Source: Promethearchaeota archaeon (GTDB lineage Archaea; Asgardarchaeota; Lokiarchaeia; Sigyniarchaeales; SOKP01). From it: DNA of 34,992 nt. Below, piece after piece: positions 2,167-34,992 of the stretch. Position 1 is the stretch's first letter; every line of letters starts with the position of its first letter. Below the pieces are notes generated by a model. The model saw nothing but the letters and a program-made list of their open reading frames with translations, did not search any database and was not told the origin of the DNA. The translations under genes were made by a program, and so were the position numbers. The stretch lies in the NCBI GenBank assembly GCA_048941265.1, contig JBHLNT010000029.1, forward strand, positions 1 through 34,992, written 5' to 3'.

Positions 2167-2781
2167 CTATTGTAGGAAGAATGGAGCAAATATTAAAAAT
2201 CCAAAAAATATAGACATTAAAAGAGAATATATCAAATTACGAATAACTTTCCTAGGATTACTAATATTTCTGTTATTATTTATTAAATACCATATTGTAA
2301 GAAGCAAATGTAAAAATGCTTCAAAAGATGCTAATGCAAAAATCAAATAAATAAATCTCTCAAATTCATATTTACTTTTATTAGGATCTTTGATCCTATC
2401 CACATCATAGAAATCGAGCTCAACAGCATCAATAAGTTGGAAAATTAAAGGAGGTGGAAGAAAAGTTGAAACCCAAATCAAAAGATAAATTAAGAAATTA
2501 AATGCAATGCCAATAGCCAAAAATATATAGATAGTCCCAACAATTAAACGCGGTTTTTTTAGCTGATTCTCACTCTCCTCTATCTTTTTAAGTCTCTCAA
2601 CTAGGTAAATTCCCCTTAGTTTATTTAACGTTAAGATCCCTACAAAGAGTAAAATAAAGACGAAAATATATTTTAAACAAAAGAAAAAAAATAATAAACC
2701 ACTGTTTAAAACCCCAAATAAGTCATCAGTTTTATGAACGAGATCAGAAATTTCAAAATTTATATATATTAATGTTTTCAC
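2167..2781 (-). CDS. hypothetical multi-pass membrane protein
   Basis: 204-aa ORF with about 4 hydrophobic segments; start codon uncertain (GTG). Confidence 0.65.
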   Translation of the reverse strand: MKTLIYINFEISDLVHKTDDLFGVLNSGLLFFFFCLKYIFVFILLFVGILTLNKLRGIYLVERLKKIEESENQLKKPRLIVGTIYIFLAIGIAFNFLIYLLIWVSTFLPPPLIFQLIDAVELDFYDVDRIKDPNKSKYEFERFIYLIFALASFEAFLHLLLTIWYLINNNRNISNPRKVIRNLIYSLLMSIFFGFLIFAPFFLQ

Positions 2782-2952
2782 GTTAGTTTTTATGAAAATT
2801 TGTATTTAAACTCTTAATAAATGGTTTTTCAGTAGATTTTTATTAAAATAAAAAGTTGGTATCCTCTCTTTTCAAAATTCTTATTTATCTAAAAAAAATT
2901 TTAATTATGGATGAAAATTCATGTAAGTAATTAAACTTAAAGAGGAGAAAAG

Positions 2953-3092
2953 CGCCCCCGGCTTTCCCAACGGCCTGGAAATCAAACCGTTTATGGATCG
3001 AACATGCGACCGCCCGGTTACAGCCGAATTCTCTCTATAAGCTCTGATTGTCGATAACAGCCGGGTGCTCTACCTAACTGAGCTACGGAGGC
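2953..3092 (-). tRNA. tRNA-Asn(GTT) with two introns (37/38 at 3019-3054; 63/64 at 2963-2992)
   Basis: Spliced sequence GCCTCCG TA GCTC AGTTAGGTA GAGC A CCCGG CTGTTAA CCGGG CGGTC GCATG TTCGATC CATGC CGGGGGC G forms a full cloverleaf with G73. Confidence 0.9.
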
Positions 3093-3128
3093 GTGATTTT
3101 CCAATGCATAAACGCAAAAAGCGTTTAA

Positions 3129-3233
3129 TGCTCTCGCCGGGATTCGAACCCGGGTCACCAGGGTGAAGGCCTAGTATGCCTCGCTGTCTTCCTAAGAATG
3201 AGGGAGACTTTGGCCGGACTACACTACGAGAGC
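3129..3233 (-). tRNA. tRNA-Glu(TTC) with D-loop intron (~21/22, 3180-3209)
   Basis: GCTCTCG/CGAGAGC acceptor stem, CCGGG-TTCGAAT-CCCGG T arm, CTAGG-CCTTCAC-CCTGG anticodon arm, and a 30-nt hairpin insert between GGCCAA and GCAT. Intron boundary uncertain by 1-2 nt. Confidence 0.85.
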
Positions 3234-3407
3234 ATAGTATATTGCGTTAATTTTTAGATTTTTAATTAAGTAAAGTTTTTTCTAAAAAAAAAATTTAAAA
3301 TTAACTTATTTACAAGGTAGATGTTTTAATCAACTAAGAAATTAAAAATTTTCTATTATGAATTTCAATTAAGAAATTAATTCCTATCATTTTATTTTGA
3401 AGTTTAA

Positions 3408-3525
3408 TGCGGGAAGAGGGATTTGAACCCCCGAACTTCTACAAGACTGGATTCTAAGTCCAGCGCCTCAAGTCGGCTTTCGAAAAGGCTCGAAAATGCC
3501 ATTAACCAGACTTGGCAATTCCCGC
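3408..3525 (-). tRNA. tRNA-Leu(TAG) with D-loop intron (21/22, 3469-3501)
   Basis: GCGGGAA/TTCCCGC acceptor, CTGGA-CTTAGAA-TCCAG anticodon arm, long variable arm, A73. BHB: GGTT/GACT helix, AA^T and TG^A bulges, GGC/GCC intron stem. Confidence 0.92.
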
Positions 3526-3548
3526 TTAAATATGACCTAAAATTTAAA

Positions 3549-3708
3549 TGCAGGGAGTGGGATTCGAACCCACGTACTCCTACGAGACCGGATATCTCAT
3601 CAGAGTTGCTAAATCAACGGAATTTATTTTTTAAAGATCTTGAGTCCAGCTTATGAGATTATTTCTCAATAGAGTCCGGCACCGTTGACCAGGCTTGGTT
3701 ATCCCTGC
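3549..3708 (-). tRNA. tRNA-Leu(CAA) with two introns (32/33 at 3644-3673; 37/38 at 3594-3638)
   Basis: GCAGGGA/TCCCTGC acceptor, spliced anticodon arm CCGGA-CTCAAGA-TCCGG, long variable arm. BHB central helices CCGG/CTGG and CTCA/TGAG. Confidence 0.9.
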
Positions 3709-3776
3709 TTGAAGGGGTATTAACTCTAAGCCGGCGACCTCAATATTTTATATATTTATATAATAATTCTCTAATT

Positions 3777-4139
3777 TTAATCTTTTTCAACTAATTCTGT
3801 CAAAATTTTCTCTACAAAACTCAAGAGGGGTTTTGCAATTTCTTCTTCTTTTGTTCGATCTCTTAAAAAAAGGAGGAGTAAAACCGGTTTTTTTAAGGTA
3901 TGAGACGCTTTTTCAGATATTATAGTACTTAATAACTTTTTATTAACTCCGAATAGACTATAGGAGGCTGAAATAGGTTTTAATCCTTCAGTCAATGGAG
4001 GGCTTCCCAAGGTGACATTCCCTATTCCCATCTCTTTTTGATCAGAAATTAACAAGAGAAAACTATTATGTAACTTAAATAAAACTGCATAAATTTTTAA
4101 ATTATCAATTAAAAAGTCCTTATTTATTACAGGTATCAT
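3777..4139 (-). CDS. proteasome assembly chaperone PAC4/PSMG4-like protein
   Basis: 120 aa; the pattern KLHNSFLLLI...GNVTLG...SLFG...IISEKAS...KKPVLL resembles PAC3/PAC4 family as recalled. Confidence 0.6.
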   Translation of the reverse strand: MIPVINKDFLIDNLKIYAVLFKLHNSFLLLISDQKEMGIGNVTLGSPPLTEGLKPISASYSLFGVNKKLLSTIISEKASHTLKKPVLLLLFLRDRTKEEEIAKPLLSFVEKILTELVEKD

Positions 4140-4185: not shown

Positions 4186-4989
4186 TTACAGCTCGGCTTC
4201 TCTGATTGCTTCATCAACATCGTAATTCTTGTTTACAATTAAATATAATGCTCTTACTACCTTTGTAGGATCGTCTGCTTGAAAGACATTTCTGCCATAG
4301 GCAACTCCTGCCCCTCCAACATCAATTGATTGCTTGGTAATCTCTAAAATCCCCCTTAATCCTGCCTTTTCTCCCCCTGCGATAATAACTGGAGCCATGC
4401 AACCCTTAACCACTTCTTTAAAGGAATCCGGGTCACCAGTCCAATTTGTTTTTACGATATCCACACCTAATTCAGCAGCAACTCTCGCAGCAATCTTAAC
4501 GACCTCAACATCATATTCATCTTCTATGTTTTCCCCTCTGGGATACATCATAGCTAAGAGAGGCATTCCATATTCTCTACATTCTCTTGATACTTTTCCT
4601 AAGGTTTCTAGCATCTCTGGATCAGATTGAGTCCCTATATTTATATGGAGTGAAACTCCATCCGCACCCAACTTAACAGCCTCTAAAACAGTATTTACTA
4701 AAACTTTATAATTAGACATTGGGCTCAATGAAGTTGATCCCGAGAGATGTAATATCAAACCTATATCAGGACCATACCCTCTATGTGCATATAATGGAAT
4801 CCCGATATGTCCTAATACAGCATTCGCACCACCTAATGCAACCTTATTTACCATATCTCCGAGATCATTTTCAATACCTTTGATAGGTCCCACTGTTAAA
4901 CCATGATCCATAGGGACGATGATTGATTTTCCATTTTCCCTATTCATAATTCTTTCCATTCTAATACTTTTACCGATATATCCAGACAT
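4186..4989 (-). CDS. DhnA-type class I aldolase, likely 2-amino-3,7-dideoxy-D-threo-hept-6-ulosonate synthase (AroA')
   Basis: IVPMDHG, LAMMYPRG, ARVAAELGVDIVKT, IIAGG and GRNVFQ motifs. Confidence 0.85.
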   Translation of the reverse strand: MSGYIGKSIRMERIMNRENGKSIIVPMDHGLTVGPIKGIENDLGDMVNKVALGGANAVLGHIGIPLYAHRGYGPDIGLILHLSGSTSLSPMSNYKVLVNTVLEAVKLGADGVSLHINIGTQSDPEMLETLGKVSRECREYGMPLLAMMYPRGENIEDEYDVEVVKIAARVAAELGVDIVKTNWTGDPDSFKEVVKGCMAPVIIAGGEKAGLRGILEITKQSIDVGGAGVAYGRNVFQADDPTKVVRALYLIVNKNYDVDEAIREAEL

Positions 4990-20435: not shown

Positions 20436-20606
20436 TGGTAGCGGGGGTTCGAGATCCATAGCGCTGGAAATCAGCGGATACTTTATTCATCAGGAAATCA
20501 CGTTCAGTCTTTCTGTGTTGAACGAACGATCTCAGGGTTTCTTAAGTGAAAACTCTATTTTCCATTTATGAGCCCTGCGGCATAAACCAGGCTAGCCCAC
20601 CCCGCT
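20436..20606 (-). tRNA. initiator tRNA-Met(CAT), CCA encoded; intron at 37/38 (20539-20566) plus a 64-nt T-loop insertion parsed as three introns
   Basis: A1-U72 (AGCGGGG/CCCCGCT), three consecutive G-C pairs in the CAGGG/CCCTG anticodon stem, GTTCG/CGAAC T stem and ACCA end. Confidence 0.93.
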
Positions 20607-20646: not shown

Positions 20647-20760
20647 TGAATCATAATAATGTTCCAATAATTTAATGTTTTCCCTTTTTTAGTGCCGTTT
20701 ATTAATATATTTATAAAAATAGGATATAAATTAGGAATAAAATGGAAATTTTTATCTAAA

Positions 20761-21567
20761 ATGGCAGATCAGCATTCACAAAGTTTTTTTGGTCAAAATA
20801 CAGGCTTAATCATAAGCAGTTCTTCAAAATCGGATGCTTTTTTATTTATAAGAGGTATAAGGAGAAAAAGTGATGGTAATTGGGAAAAACTATCTGCAGG
20901 TGAAGGTAAAGTTATTAAATGCTCTTTAGAAGAAATTGTCATGATTCTTACTGTATTAAACCGTAATTCTCTAAAGTGGCAAAGTTATCATACTTATAAG
21001 GATAATAAAACATCTATTTCCATTGGATGGGAAGATGAAGAAGCTAAAACTTTATGGATAAATATTGATAAATATTCAAAGATGATAAATTATGCTCAAG
21101 CAGAAATAATACGTTTATTATTGATCCATATTTTAGATGAAAAAATTAGATATGCTACATCTTCTAACAATGAAAATATGAATAAAGGTAAAGACCTTAT
21201 TAATTCTCCCAAAGATATTAATTATATCAGCCATAATGGAAAAAGTTATTATGAAAATTATAAAGCAAACTATAAGAACAAAAAAACTCAAATTACAACT
21301 TTAGAGCCGAATAATCCTCCTTTTCAACAAGAGAATTCAATTATCTCAAACTCATCTCCTAATGCGAATCTCTTAAATGAGATGAGTAATATAGACGGAA
21401 CAATTTCAGGTGAAACCCATAAAGCATTGTTAATAAATTTTAACTCTGGAAAGGAAATTTGGATTCCTAAATCGACTATTCACTGTCAATACAGTCCAAA
21501 GCAAAATTTAGTGCAAAAATTCTTAATTGATAATTGGGTCCTAAAGAGGAACAAAATCATTTCATGA
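20761..21567 (+). CDS. hypothetical protein; N-terminal domain Whirly/PC4-like, C-terminal small beta domain
   Basis: ATG at 20761 preferred over GTG at 20692. Two domains are joined by an Asn/Ser-rich linker. Confidence 0.6.
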   Translation: MADQHSQSFFGQNTGLIISSSSKSDAFLFIRGIRRKSDGNWEKLSAGEGKVIKCSLEEIVMILTVLNRNSLKWQSYHTYKDNKTSISIGWEDEEAKTLWINIDKYSKMINYAQAEIIRLLLIHILDEKIRYATSSNNENMNKGKDLINSPKDINYISHNGKSYYENYKANYKNKKTQITTLEPNNPPFQQENSIISNSSPNANLLNEMSNIDGTISGETHKALLINFNSGKEIWIPKSTIHCQYSPKQNLVQKFLIDNWVLKRNKIIS

Positions 21568-32153: not shown

Positions 32154-33296
32154 ATGCCCCTTTTAGAGCCTAGAGAGACTTATAATAAATATTTGACCGG
32201 AAAAATTGATAAATCTTCAATAATTAGCTATTATATTTCCTTAATCGAAAAGAGCAATAAAGATTGGCTAAGAATTGATGCTTTAAGATTTTTAAATAAA
32301 TTAGGGCTTAAATCCGATTTTTACTTCAAACTCCTGGAATATCTCCTACTTTCTGATGAAGATTTTGTGATTAAAGCCTATGCAACAAAATTTCTTATTA
32401 AGAGTTTTCCTTATAGAGCAGTTAGGCCTATTCAATGGGCACTTGAAAATCTGGATTGGAATTCACTCAATGACTACCCAAAAATCGGATTAGGTTCCAT
32501 TTTAAGGGACTTAAGAAATTCTAAAAACCCTAAATTAATTCCCCTGTTAAATCTTAAGGAACATGTTGCATTTGATAATGAGATTTTTCTAGTGAAAAAT
32601 CATATATTAATTCTCAATAATTTAGGAATTACTAGTATAAAAGAAATAGAAGGTTTAGAAAAACTTGCGAATCTACACGAATTACACCTCTCAGGAAATG
32701 AAATTTCTGAAATTAAAGGACTTGAAAACCTTACTAAATTGAAACTCTTAGACCTTTCATATAACAAAATTAAACAAATAAAACATTTGGACTCTCTCTT
32801 AGATTTAAATCAGTTATACCTTAATAATAATGAAATAAATCAAATTAGCGGCCTCGATAATTTAATTAATTTACATTTTCTGAACCTTGACTCTAATGAG
32901 ATAACTGAAATCGATGGTCTAAATCATAATAAAAATCTTCATACCTTATACCTCAGCCATAATAACATTACTGAAATCGAAAATCTCACATCCCTCACGA
33001 ATCTCTTTATCCTCGCATTAAACAATAATAAAATTAAACATATAAATGGTTTAGAGAATTTATATAACTTGAGAGTACTACGCCTAAATGATAATCAATT
33101 AACGGAAATTAAAGGGTTCAATAACCTCAATAATTTAATAACCCTTAATTTAGCCAATAATAAGATTAAAAGGATACCTAGATCAAATCTGCCGCGTCTC
33201 ACCTGCTTCAATATCGATAATAATCAGATCCCCGAAGAAAATCTAATATTCTTCTACAAAAATAATGGTATATTTAAATACCTTCATTGCTTTTAA
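32154..33296 (+). CDS. leucine-rich repeat protein, paralogue of 30492-31634
   Basis: Same length (380 aa), colinear N-terminal domain and LRRs. Confidence 0.9.
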   Translation: MPLLEPRETYNKYLTGKIDKSSIISYYISLIEKSNKDWLRIDALRFLNKLGLKSDFYFKLLEYLLLSDEDFVIKAYATKFLIKSFPYRAVRPIQWALENLDWNSLNDYPKIGLGSILRDLRNSKNPKLIPLLNLKEHVAFDNEIFLVKNHILILNNLGITSIKEIEGLEKLANLHELHLSGNEISEIKGLENLTKLKLLDLSYNKIKQIKHLDSLLDLNQLYLNNNEINQISGLDNLINLHFLNLDSNEITEIDGLNHNKNLHTLYLSHNNITEIENLTSLTNLFILALNNNKIKHINGLENLYNLRVLRLNDNQLTEIKGFNNLNNLITLNLANNKIKRIPRSNLPRLTCFNIDNNQIPEENLIFFYKNNGIFKYLHCF

Positions 33297-33505
33297 CTTC
33301 AAAGAATACAAAATCTCATTACCTGGTTTAATATTTCAAATGTTTTCCCTGTTATTTCATTTTTAAAATTTTTGATCTAAGACCATAAAATTTTTAACCT
33401 AATAATTACTCTAATATTTCGTCGATGGTTCAACTATCAGTTTTTAAAAAAATTTATTCTTACGACCATCGCAAGTTATTGGTTGAGAAAAATATCTCAT
33501 CTAAT

Positions 33506-33625
33506 ATGATGACATACGCCAATAACGGCATCGGACTCGCGGAAGTACGTCACAGGAGATGAATACCTTGCGCTGCCTGGGAAAGCTGAGGAGTGTGGCG
33601 CCACAGGAAACGAGACGTCCGTACC
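33506..33625 (+). ncRNA. GC-rich structured element with C/D-box-like motifs in the 23S rRNA leader
   Basis: ATGATGA at 33506, CGGA at 33532, GAGATGA at 33556, CTGA at 33586; helices CGGAC/GTCCG and TGTG/CACA; GC-rich island within AT-rich flanks. Confidence 0.4.
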
Positions 33626-33792
33626 AAGCACTAAAAATCGTGCTCATAGGAACATACCCCATTGTAAAATCAAATGTCCCAAATATGAGGTTTGATTTAC
33701 AATCGCGAATACTTGCCAATTTTATATGCTTATCTTTCACACACTTAATACCTGTGCATAAGCAATCTGAACCTTTCCTTGAGTAGACGCCA

Positions 33793-34992
33793 TGACGCCT
33801 CCGCTATTTGGTGGATATCTTGGCTTGGGCACCGATGAAGAGCGTGACAAGCTGCGATAAGCTTGGGTTAGTCGCACGTAGACTTCGACCCCAAGATCCT
33901 CGAATCGGACATCCGCTTGCGGCCCAATAATCCGCAAGATTCCCATAACCCTAAGGTGAGGGAAGGGGAACCCTGGGAAGTAAAACATTTTAGTACCAGG
34001 AGGAAAAGAAAACAACAGTGATTCCGTGAGTAACGGCGAGCGAAAGCGGAACAGGTCAAACCGAATCCAATCGGGAAACCTTTTGGAGATGTGGTGTGTG
34101 GACCTCATACGACCTCCCTAGTGAAGGTGAAAACCTCTGGAATGCCGTGCCATAGAGCGTGACAGCCGCGTAACCGCAAACTAGAAGGTTGATTTGAGGT
34201 ATCCCGAGTAGTGCGGGATGGTTTTCTCGTACGAATGTGCCAAACACATATTGGCAAACCTAAATATGTCCCAAGACCGATAGTGAAGTAGTAGCGTGAG
34301 CGAAAGATGAAAAGTAACCCGGAAGGGTCGTGAAAAGTGCTTGAAACCAAATAGCTTAATAAGGATGCAGCCTGAAAGGATAGATTCTGAGCGAATGTGT
34401 TCCGGTGACGGAATATCAGAGCACAGAGGACTAGGGTTGCATCATCAGTCTGGAATCATTGGCCAGGGAGTTTATAGTAGAGGCGAGCTTAAGTGTCTCG
34501 CGGCACGGAGGCATAGGGAAACCAATATTCTTGCATCCTAATTATCACATTAGGATGACCTATTCGTTATACGATGAGCTATGCTCTCTAAAAACGTTTA
34601 GCGATTCCTTCTAAGGAATTAGGTCAGAAGAATGGTCTTAAAGGGCCAAGAGTCTCTGCTATAATACCCGAAGCCGGTCGATCTATTCCTGGGCAAGATG
34701 AAGCCGTTCGAAAGGGCGGTGGAGGTCTGCAGTAGTGATGACGTGCAATTCTCTTACATGACCTGGGAATAGGAGCAAAAGGCTAATCTAGATCGGTGAT
34801 AGCTGGTTCTCCCCGAAGTTGGTGTCAGCCAAGTCTCAAGCGAGGTAGCCAGTGGGGTAGAGCACTAATTGCGAAGTAAGGGGAAGAAATTCCTCGCCTC
34901 GCTCTTAAACTCCGAAACTGCTGGCGCCGTAGACCTTGGGAAACGGGTTGGTGGGCGTAAAGTCCATCGCCGAGACGGGAACAACCTAGACT
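33793..34992 (+). rRNA. 23S rRNA, 5' part (runs off the window; 5' end approximate)
   Basis: Conserved LSU segments GGTGGAT...CCGATGAAG..CGTG.CAAGCTGCGATAAGC, AAACAT.TTAGTACC, ACCGATAGTGAA..AGTA.CGTGAG.GAAAG and GATAGCTGGTTC. Confidence 0.97.

Follow-up and report, generated by a model that had tools for sequence, protein, structure and literature searches.

Heavy non-canonical interruption of transfer RNA (tRNA) genes, an (alpha-beta)2-type archaeal splicing endonuclease (EndA) with a specificity loop, and genes missed by annotators have all been published already for Asgard archaea. According to the available text of Valentin-Alvarado et al. 2024 (PMC11291895), introns occur in 92-95% of the tRNA genes of Atabeyarchaeia and Freyarchaeia, more than half of these genes contain multiple introns, and tRNAscan-SE overlooked some. 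An October 2026 preprint on 90 Asgard genomes, here called the census (bioRxiv 10.64898/2026.10.13.758758), reports in its available parts that 25-30% of insertions, chiefly D-arm ones, escape tRNAscan-SE, that bulge-helix-bulge (BHB) motifs are weaker in D-arm insertions, that recent gains occurred repeatedly and that a two-subunit EndA is widespread; its "other families" carry 0.91 insertions per gene. Here, we analysed a stretch of 34,992 nt of contig JBHLNT010000029.1, called the window throughout, which holds eight introns in five tRNA genes, three at the canonical position and five at non-canonical ones. The five loci very probably function as tRNA genes with introns; they belong to an Asgard archaeon of the Promethearchaeia (Lokiarchaeia-type), and their transcripts would be spliced by EndA and a ligase.

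These genes resemble the Asgard systems of PMC11291895 and the census, as described in the available text, in having several short introns per gene, many of them non-canonical, with D-arm and T-arm sites among them. As in the census, weak-BHB insertions in the D arm are missed by software, and intron positions turn over between close relatives. Unlike the present work, both papers focus in their available parts on Jordiarchaeia and Atabeyarchaeia; the sample here, eight introns in five genes, is small. No Loki-type taxon was named in the available main text of the census preprint (zero matches for six name stems), and a literature search for Loki-specific accounts gave nothing beyond the papers cited here. 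A T-arm intron in tRNA-Sec of Lokiarchaeota was described by Mariotti et al. 2016 (as cited in the available part of PMC5330540). This is also a non-canonical T-arm intron in a Loki-type archaeon, but it is one intron in one gene, whereas elongator tRNAs for Leu, Glu and Asn and the initiator tRNA-Met are interrupted here.

An earlier note on this DNA had spoken of a Thermoproteales-like proliferation of introns. The comparison is loosely apt: the introns are multiple and mostly non-canonical, but eight in five genes are too few to give a genome-wide density. Multi-intron tRNA genes of Thermoproteales were reportedly described in Sugahara 2008 and Fujishima 2010. BHB-dependent introns are found at many positions in that order too, up to several per gene, and there together with an (alpha-beta)2 EndA. 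In Thermoproteales, 28.3% of the introns belong to sequence families that run across tRNA types at 80% identity or more (census, available text). In contrast, the introns of the window share a short motif only, with no full-length similarity.

Anatomy of the tRNA genes and their splice motifs

The tRNA positions were numbered by hand from the sequence. All cut pairs were scanned, and those that restore the cloverleaf were taken as introns. Under the BHB rule applied, the four exon bases ending two before the 5' cut pair with the four intron bases ending two before the 3' cut. Pairs in this 4-bp helix are called central, and the flanking pairs are called outer and inner. The geometry agrees with Yoshihisa 2014 (PMC4090602, available part), in which the first two anticodon bases lie within the 4-bp central helix. 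The genes, introns and product names given by ARAGORN are as follows.

3549..3708, minus strand: tRNA-Leu(CAA) gene, 160 nt in three exons; the spliced 85 nt are called tRNA-Leu(caa)
3644..3673, minus strand: Leu(CAA) intron 1 at 32/33, 30 nt; central 4, outer 2, inner 2; full BHB
3639..3643, minus strand: Leu(CAA) micro-exon between both introns, 5 nt, tRNA positions 33-37 including the anticodon
3594..3638, minus strand: Leu(CAA) intron 2 at the canonical 37/38, 45 nt; central 4, outer 6, inner 2; full BHB
3408..3525, minus strand: tRNA-Leu(TAG) gene, 118 nt; the spliced 85 nt are called tRNA-Leu(tag)
3469..3501, minus strand: Leu(TAG) D-loop intron at 21/22, 33 nt; central 4 (two are G-U), outer 2, inner 3; full BHB
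3129..3233, minus strand: tRNA-Glu(TTC) gene, 105 nt; the spliced 75 nt are called tRNA-Glu(ttc)
3180..3209, minus strand: Glu(TTC) D-loop insertion at 21/22, 30 nt, with an internal hairpin; central 2, outer 0, inner 4; poor BHB
2953..3092, minus strand: tRNA-Asn(GTT) gene, 140 nt; the spliced 74 nt are called tRNA-Asn(gtt)
3019..3054, minus strand: Asn(GTT) intron at the canonical 37/38, 36 nt; central 3, outer 5, inner 3; relaxed BHB
2963..2992, minus strand: Asn(GTT) T-stem intron at 63/64, 30 nt; central 3, outer 1, inner 9; HBh'-type; holds TGATTTCC
20436..20606, minus strand: initiator-type tRNA-Met(CAT) gene, 171 nt including CCA (20438-20436); the spliced 79 nt are called tRNA-Met(cat)
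20539..20566, minus strand: Met(CAT) intron at the canonical 37/38, 28 nt; central 3, outer 5, inner 1; relaxed BHB
20453..20516, minus strand: Met(CAT) T-loop intron at 59/60, 64 nt; central 4, outer 5 (the T stem), inner 0; hBH-type; holds TGATTTCC twice

The eight introns were deleted in silico by their coordinates. After deletion, ARAGORN called all five tRNAs with the expected anticodons, and before it called none. In the ARAGORN drawing, the spliced tRNA-Met showed A1 paired with U72 and an anticodon stem with three G-C pairs at its base. For the cluster of Leu-CAA, Leu-TAG, Glu-TTC and Asn-GTT, the earlier note had placed six introns at 32/33, 37/38 (twice), 21/22 (twice) and 63/64, and every one of these positions was exact. 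Its statement that every tRNA of the window is split also held (5/5), as no intact tRNA was found in the whole window by default ARAGORN or by the Rfam tRNA model at E<=1. Its total of about ten introns including tRNA-iMet, seven of them non-canonical, was too high. The count is eight and five, and two introns (37/38 and 59/60) suffice in Met.

Four of the eight junctions form a full BHB with four central pairs and a flanking helix, three form a relaxed motif with three central pairs, and one (Glu, two pairs) forms none. The rule of the 2026 census gives the same split of four canonical, three relaxed and one none. Imperfect central helices had been pointed out beforehand in Glu and Asn; they have 2/4 pairs in Glu and 3/4 twice in Asn, and Met 37/38 also has 3/4. 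At least three central and at least four flanking pairs were present at 7/8 of the cloverleaf-defined junctions, compared with 194 of 19,121 (1.0%) other cut pairs in the five precursors (25-70 nt apart) and 10,774 of 956,450 (1.1%) in shuffled precursors. This indicates that BHB motifs at the junctions exceed chance. The central helix is the cleaner signal, because stems of the tRNA itself contribute to the outer helix.

Conservation among relatives and alternative readings

Relatives were found via the neighbouring aldolase gene (4186-4989, minus strand), which gave 72 loci, labelled by L numbers up to L072. The closest 19 aldolase loci (78-95% amino-acid identity) are metagenome-assembled genomes (MAGs), mostly labelled Promethearchaeia or Promethearchaeota; four bear other Asgard labels (Thor-, Hod-, Hermodarchaeota) and five are just "uncultured archaeon". 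Promethearchaeales belongs to the class Promethearchaeia. The window also has a profilin-family match, just over the Pfam cut-off, and archaeal/eukaryote-type information-processing genes; it encodes TFIIB, eRF1, NMD3, a RIO kinase, FtsZ and leucine-rich-repeat proteins. The profilin-family match, the information-processing genes and the Promethearchaeia or Promethearchaeota MAGs as nearest relatives agree with the Asgard lineage that had been proposed from the sequence. The next relatives of the aldolase (L022 and L026-L072; 54-62% identity) belong mostly to Smithella, other Desulfobacterota and Spirochaetes, not to other archaea; the exceptions at similar identity are a few Promethearchaeota MAGs (L020, L021, L023 and L024).

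The Leu(CAA) gene adjoins the aldolase gene in 14 further genomes, and both of its introns (32/33 and 37/38) are kept in ten other MAGs, namely L006 and the nine relatives that were aligned with the window in alignment A1. This alignment has ten Leu(CAA) sequences sharing both introns; L006, with a third intron, and L007, L012, L013 and L018, with other intron sets, were left out. The exons showed 93% identity, with 72 of 85 columns invariant, and the two introns showed 60% and 68%. The micro-exon columns (tRNA 33-37) were invariant in all ten sequences. When the cloverleaf, the 37/38 BHB and the intron-1 hairpin were scored together, 99.7% of 340 cells were paired, and both sides had changed at 8 of 34 pairs. 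The covariation score was matched by 0 of 500 shuffles, and slid controls were 38-48% paired. Both-sided changes were found at four of the five pairs of the intron-1 hairpin. In L010, a change at tRNA position 28 came with matching changes at both of its pairing partners, the one in the anticodon stem and the one in the central helix of intron 1; this is the one compensatory change in that helix, which also has one broken cell (L017). The central helix of intron 2 (37/38) was paired in 10/10 sequences.

Maintenance of the motifs through evolution was tested on Leu(CAA) alone, the other genes having one or two orthologues at most. The full four-gene cluster exists in the same order in L002, in which the aldolase is 93% identical. 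Leu(TAG) orthologues with the same 21/22 intron are present in L002 and L019, and their inner helix is kept via one-sided changes. The Asn 63/64 intron is also present in L002, with a compensated hairpin and four central pairs. By these comparisons, they are genes under purifying selection in independent assemblies, rather than pseudogenes or artefacts. In L002, the gap between Leu(CAA) and Leu(TAG) is only 6 nt. The spacers 3234-3407 (Leu(TAG)-Glu) and 3093-3128 (Glu-Asn) are well conserved with L002, and a small hairpin lies in the latter; both spacers probably act as promoter or processing signals.

The Glu(TTC) insertion might not be spliced: it may be kept as an expansion of the D loop, or the gene may be a decaying copy while another Glu(UUC) gene does the work. 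The junction has two of four central pairs and no outer pair in the window and in L002 alike. In the available text of the census, only 33% of the D-arm insertions missed by tRNAscan-SE lie at a canonical BHB, and some may be "not introns at all". In addition, C replaces the near-universal U at position 33 of the window copy (window 3168, minus strand), and the L002 orthologue has U33; the C33 could be genuine variation, a mark of impairment in this copy or a fault of assembly. However, removal of exactly 30 nt gives a normal D arm and a 75-nt tRNA-Glu, and the conserved inner helix puts both cuts at cloverleaf junctions. The L002 orthologue has the same insertion, and its hairpin is kept by compensatory changes, as expected of a functional gene. 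In the pairwise alignment from which these changes were read, there are about 14 differences over 105 aligned positions, nine of them inside the 30-nt insertion. We consider a retained insertion or a decaying copy unlikely.

The tally of about ten implies more than two introns in the Met gene, in which case the extra ones would be nested within its 64-nt T-loop insertion. Inside this intron, TGATTTCC occurs as a direct repeat 27 nt apart, and a relaxed motif (central 3, outer 3, inner 2) would cut out the 28 nt between the copies. Nested introns are nevertheless improbable, as a single cut pair at 59/60, which has 4/4 central pairs and uses the T stem for its outer helix, suffices to remove the whole 64 nt and leaves a 7-nt T loop. 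None of the internal candidates has four central pairs, and maturation of this tRNA does not require nested removal. It is hardly credible that the five loci are pseudogenes, that they were assembled chimerically or that a mobile or self-splicing element has struck these tRNA genes, for although standard finders fail on them and the genome is AT-rich (about 29% G+C in the window) with many low-complexity spacers, the exons are near-invariant, the introns drift and compensatory changes are found over ten independently assembled genomes, the insertions of 28-64 nt are too short for such elements, and the region has no group I/II intron or other Rfam family, with sub-threshold matches only.

Other kinds of element were rejected as well. 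Group I and group II introns are hundreds of nucleotides long and have a ribozyme core that covariance models see; no Rfam match to them was found in 2700-4000 at E<=10 or in the whole window at E<=1, and the insertions measure 28-64 nt. None of the tRNA genes is split or permuted, as the exons are colinear, on one strand and within 105-171 nt. Box C/D guides have a C box RUGAUGA, a D box CUGA and guides of 10-12 nt, and one is intron-borne in archaeal tRNA-Trp. Such a guide was considered for Leu(CAA) intron 2 and for the Met intron; the boxes were not conserved or not paired, and there was no snoRNA-type Rfam match. Leu(CAA) intron 2 has a UGAUGA-like stretch at its 3' end; orthologues have lost the first U of this stretch and the upstream CUGA.

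Proposed splicing of the precursors and intron turnover

For five functional and spliced genes, folding of the precursor would display the junctions as a BHB or a relaxed (hBH, HBh') motif. Based on established knowledge, EndA would then cut within both bulges, and an RtcB-type RNA ligase would join the exons and circularise the intron. A broad-specificity EndA would be needed, because five of the eight introns lie outside 37/38 and half of the motifs are imperfect. We infer, from relatives rather than from this genome, that the enzyme is an (alpha-beta)2 EndA with an L1 loop. The available part of Kaneta et al. 2018 (PMC5829648) describes the EndA found across Asgard archaea as (alpha-beta)2 with an L1 specificity loop, and its tRNA panel and EndA tree take in a Lokiarchaeota genome. 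This is the broad-specificity enzyme that the hBH and HBh' motifs of the window require; it is tied to this organism by taxonomy alone, the window having no EndA gene. In the available text of the census, 44 of 60 Asgard genomes carry a pair of EndA paralogues.

The two introns of Leu(CAA) are linked. Nucleotides at the 3' end of intron 1 are also part of the 37/38 motif, where they make up the outer helix and the first central pair; with nucleotides in common, the two BHB motifs cannot coexist. Simultaneous cutting at both introns would free the pentanucleotide that carries the anticodon. The introns must therefore go sequentially. The unconstrained fold of the precursor had an energy of -55.3 kcal/mol (z = -5.1 against 200 shuffles) and included the central helix of intron 1; the forced BHB folds had -45.9 kcal/mol (32/33) and -39.3 kcal/mol (37/38). 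On these predicted energies, the 32/33 intron would be removed before the 37/38 intron. Mutually exclusive motifs around a 5-nt micro-exon would give the precursor an inherent means of ordering its splicing. The block CCGTTGA in intron 2 (3614-3620, minus strand) is kept in 11 of 11 genes (the window and ten relatives) and complements the D arm of its own tRNA; the minimum free energy fold pairs this block with 3682-3690 over 9 bp. Eight of the nine pairs are invariant, and the ninth changes on one side only, with no compensatory change. CCGTTGA doubles as the 5' strand in a small hairpin of the intron.

Several points weigh against the reading of five functional genes spliced in this way. All eight introns are known here from DNA sequence alone, and both Met introns from one sequence. 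No Pfam or NCBIfam match to EndA was found among the 34 open reading frames (ORFs) of the window, nor among the seven unassigned ones at relaxed thresholds. The BHB enrichment is aided by tRNA stems that serve as outer helix in the anticodon- and T-arm introns. Among alternative registers of the Glu insertion with at least three central pairs, none also restores the cloverleaf, and the Glu copy with C33 might be impaired. The splicing order of Leu(CAA), 32/33 first, is drawn from predicted energies.

The Leu(CAA) locus has five or more intron positions across 15 genomes. In the relatives outside alignment A1, the following intron sets were found.

L012, 9527-9651: D loop only
L013, 11331-11444: variable arm only
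L018, 7006-7142: D loop and 37/38
L007, 11238-11420: D loop, 37/38 and T loop
L006, 11438-11624: 32/33, 37/38 and T loop

The alignment-defined boundaries are approximate in L007 (99-nt product), L010 (intron 2 split in two) and L013 (one central pair), which were used for the location of insertions only. In the window and its 14 orthologues, at least one intron is present in 15/15 Leu(CAA) genes and at least two in 13/15. The novelty implied beforehand is therefore not upheld: such interruption is routine in the relatives and already catalogued in Asgard archaea (available text of PMC11291895 and bioRxiv 10.64898/2026.10.13.758758). The Asn gene has introns at 37/38 and 63/64 in the window and near 26/27, at 33/34 and at 63/64 in L002 (11879-12045), where 37/38 has none. 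In L005, intron 2 of Leu(CAA) is shorter, resembling a deletion between two TGAT repeats.

Annotation, surroundings and a shared intron motif

Default ARAGORN found none of the five tRNA genes of the window, and neither did the Rfam tRNA model at its gathering score; the top match of the latter was partial, in Leu(TAG), with 28.4 bits against a threshold of 29. With introns allowed, ARAGORN reported three of the five spans and named them Lys(ctt), Lys(ctt) and Trp(cca), so that no anticodon was correct; Asn and Met were missed. For ARAGORN and the Rfam tRNA model, these results bear out the suspicion that standard annotators miss or miscall such tRNAs. At an 80% score threshold, ARAGORN made 55-70 calls, mostly spurious, and these were not used. 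In 23 related Asgard loci (about 360 kb), default ARAGORN gave no tRNA; these loci contain at least 18 tRNA genes (14 Leu(CAA), two Leu(TAG), one Glu and one Asn). As a control, it gave six tRNAs and a transfer-messenger RNA in 22 non-Asgard loci. Seven of the related loci contain 10 known genes, of which the Rfam tRNA model at gathering found 2. A finder based on the T arm and acceptor stem, which is blind to genes with T-arm introns, recovered from the fetched loci only orthologues of Leu(CAA), Leu(TAG) and Glu.

Outside coding sequence, the only GC-rich islands of the window are the five tRNA genes and the leader of the 23S ribosomal RNA (rRNA) gene. This archaeal gene begins at 33787 (33787-34992 in the window). 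The GC-rich leader at 33503-33650 was considered as a hidden tRNA and rejected, with no Rfam match in a scan of 33290-33800. The 33 kb upstream of the 23S rRNA gene lack a 16S rRNA gene and a spacer tRNA, so the rRNA genes seem unlinked. CCA is encoded in the initiator tRNA-Met gene (20436-20438) and not in the four clustered genes. Divergent from the Met gene lies a 291-aa ORF (20692-21567, plus strand) with a weak match to RNase P protein component 1 that falls below threshold (17.4 bits where the cut-off is 90; E = 0.0036).

The sequence TGATTTCC occurs five times in the window, against 2.6 expected, and three of the five are in the two T-arm introns (minus strand: 2977-2984 in Asn 63/64; 20466-20473 and 20493-20500 in Met 59/60). 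In the form TGATTWCC (W, A or T), a motif chosen after being seen, there are 8 occurrences in 3,400 nt of recognised tRNA genes (window and relatives) and 27 in the remaining approximately 790 kb, both strands. Sites that are not orthologous to those of the window lie in the Asn 33/34 intron of L002 (L002:11955) and in the Leu(CAA) 37/38 intron of L014-L017 (L014:13259). The motif is followed by AG in three occurrences, a near-variant, TGATTTCT, is present in the variable-arm insertion of L013, and in both approximately 30-nt Asn introns it takes up nucleotides 9-16. The Asn-63/64 and Met-59/60 introns share a 10-mer, matched by 13 of 5,000 shuffles, and the Leu-37/38 and Met-59/60 introns align at 17 of 20 positions, a score reached by 19 of 5,000 shuffles; both values are uncorrected for the 28 pairs tested. 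The 10-mer, TGATTTCCAG, had matches outside recognised tRNA genes in the fetched loci, two of which (L006 and L019) were inside the aldolase gene.

TGATTWCC may mark a shared intron origin or a bound element. That part of this lineage's introns are one family which moved between tRNA genes and positions is a tentative idea, to which we give about one chance in four. If true, it would mean intron copying in the Thermoproteales style and would bear on how introns arrive. The census, in its available text, reports that intron copying is almost absent in Asgard archaea and calls intron arrival the central open problem; its clustering of whole introns at 80% identity would overlook so short a shared core.

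Overall, the results add a Promethearchaeia (Loki-type) group to the Asgard archaea for which this trait has been published, and leave knowledge of the mechanism unchanged. An ARAGORN or plain Rfam pipeline would list zero tRNAs in the window and the 23 related loci, and intron-aware tRNA calling is needed for inference of codon usage, completeness and genetic code on such genomes. The comparative series, in which Asn intron positions are swapped between two genomes with 93% identical aldolase, could allow an intron gain to be caught. The sole fresh lead is TGATTWCC.

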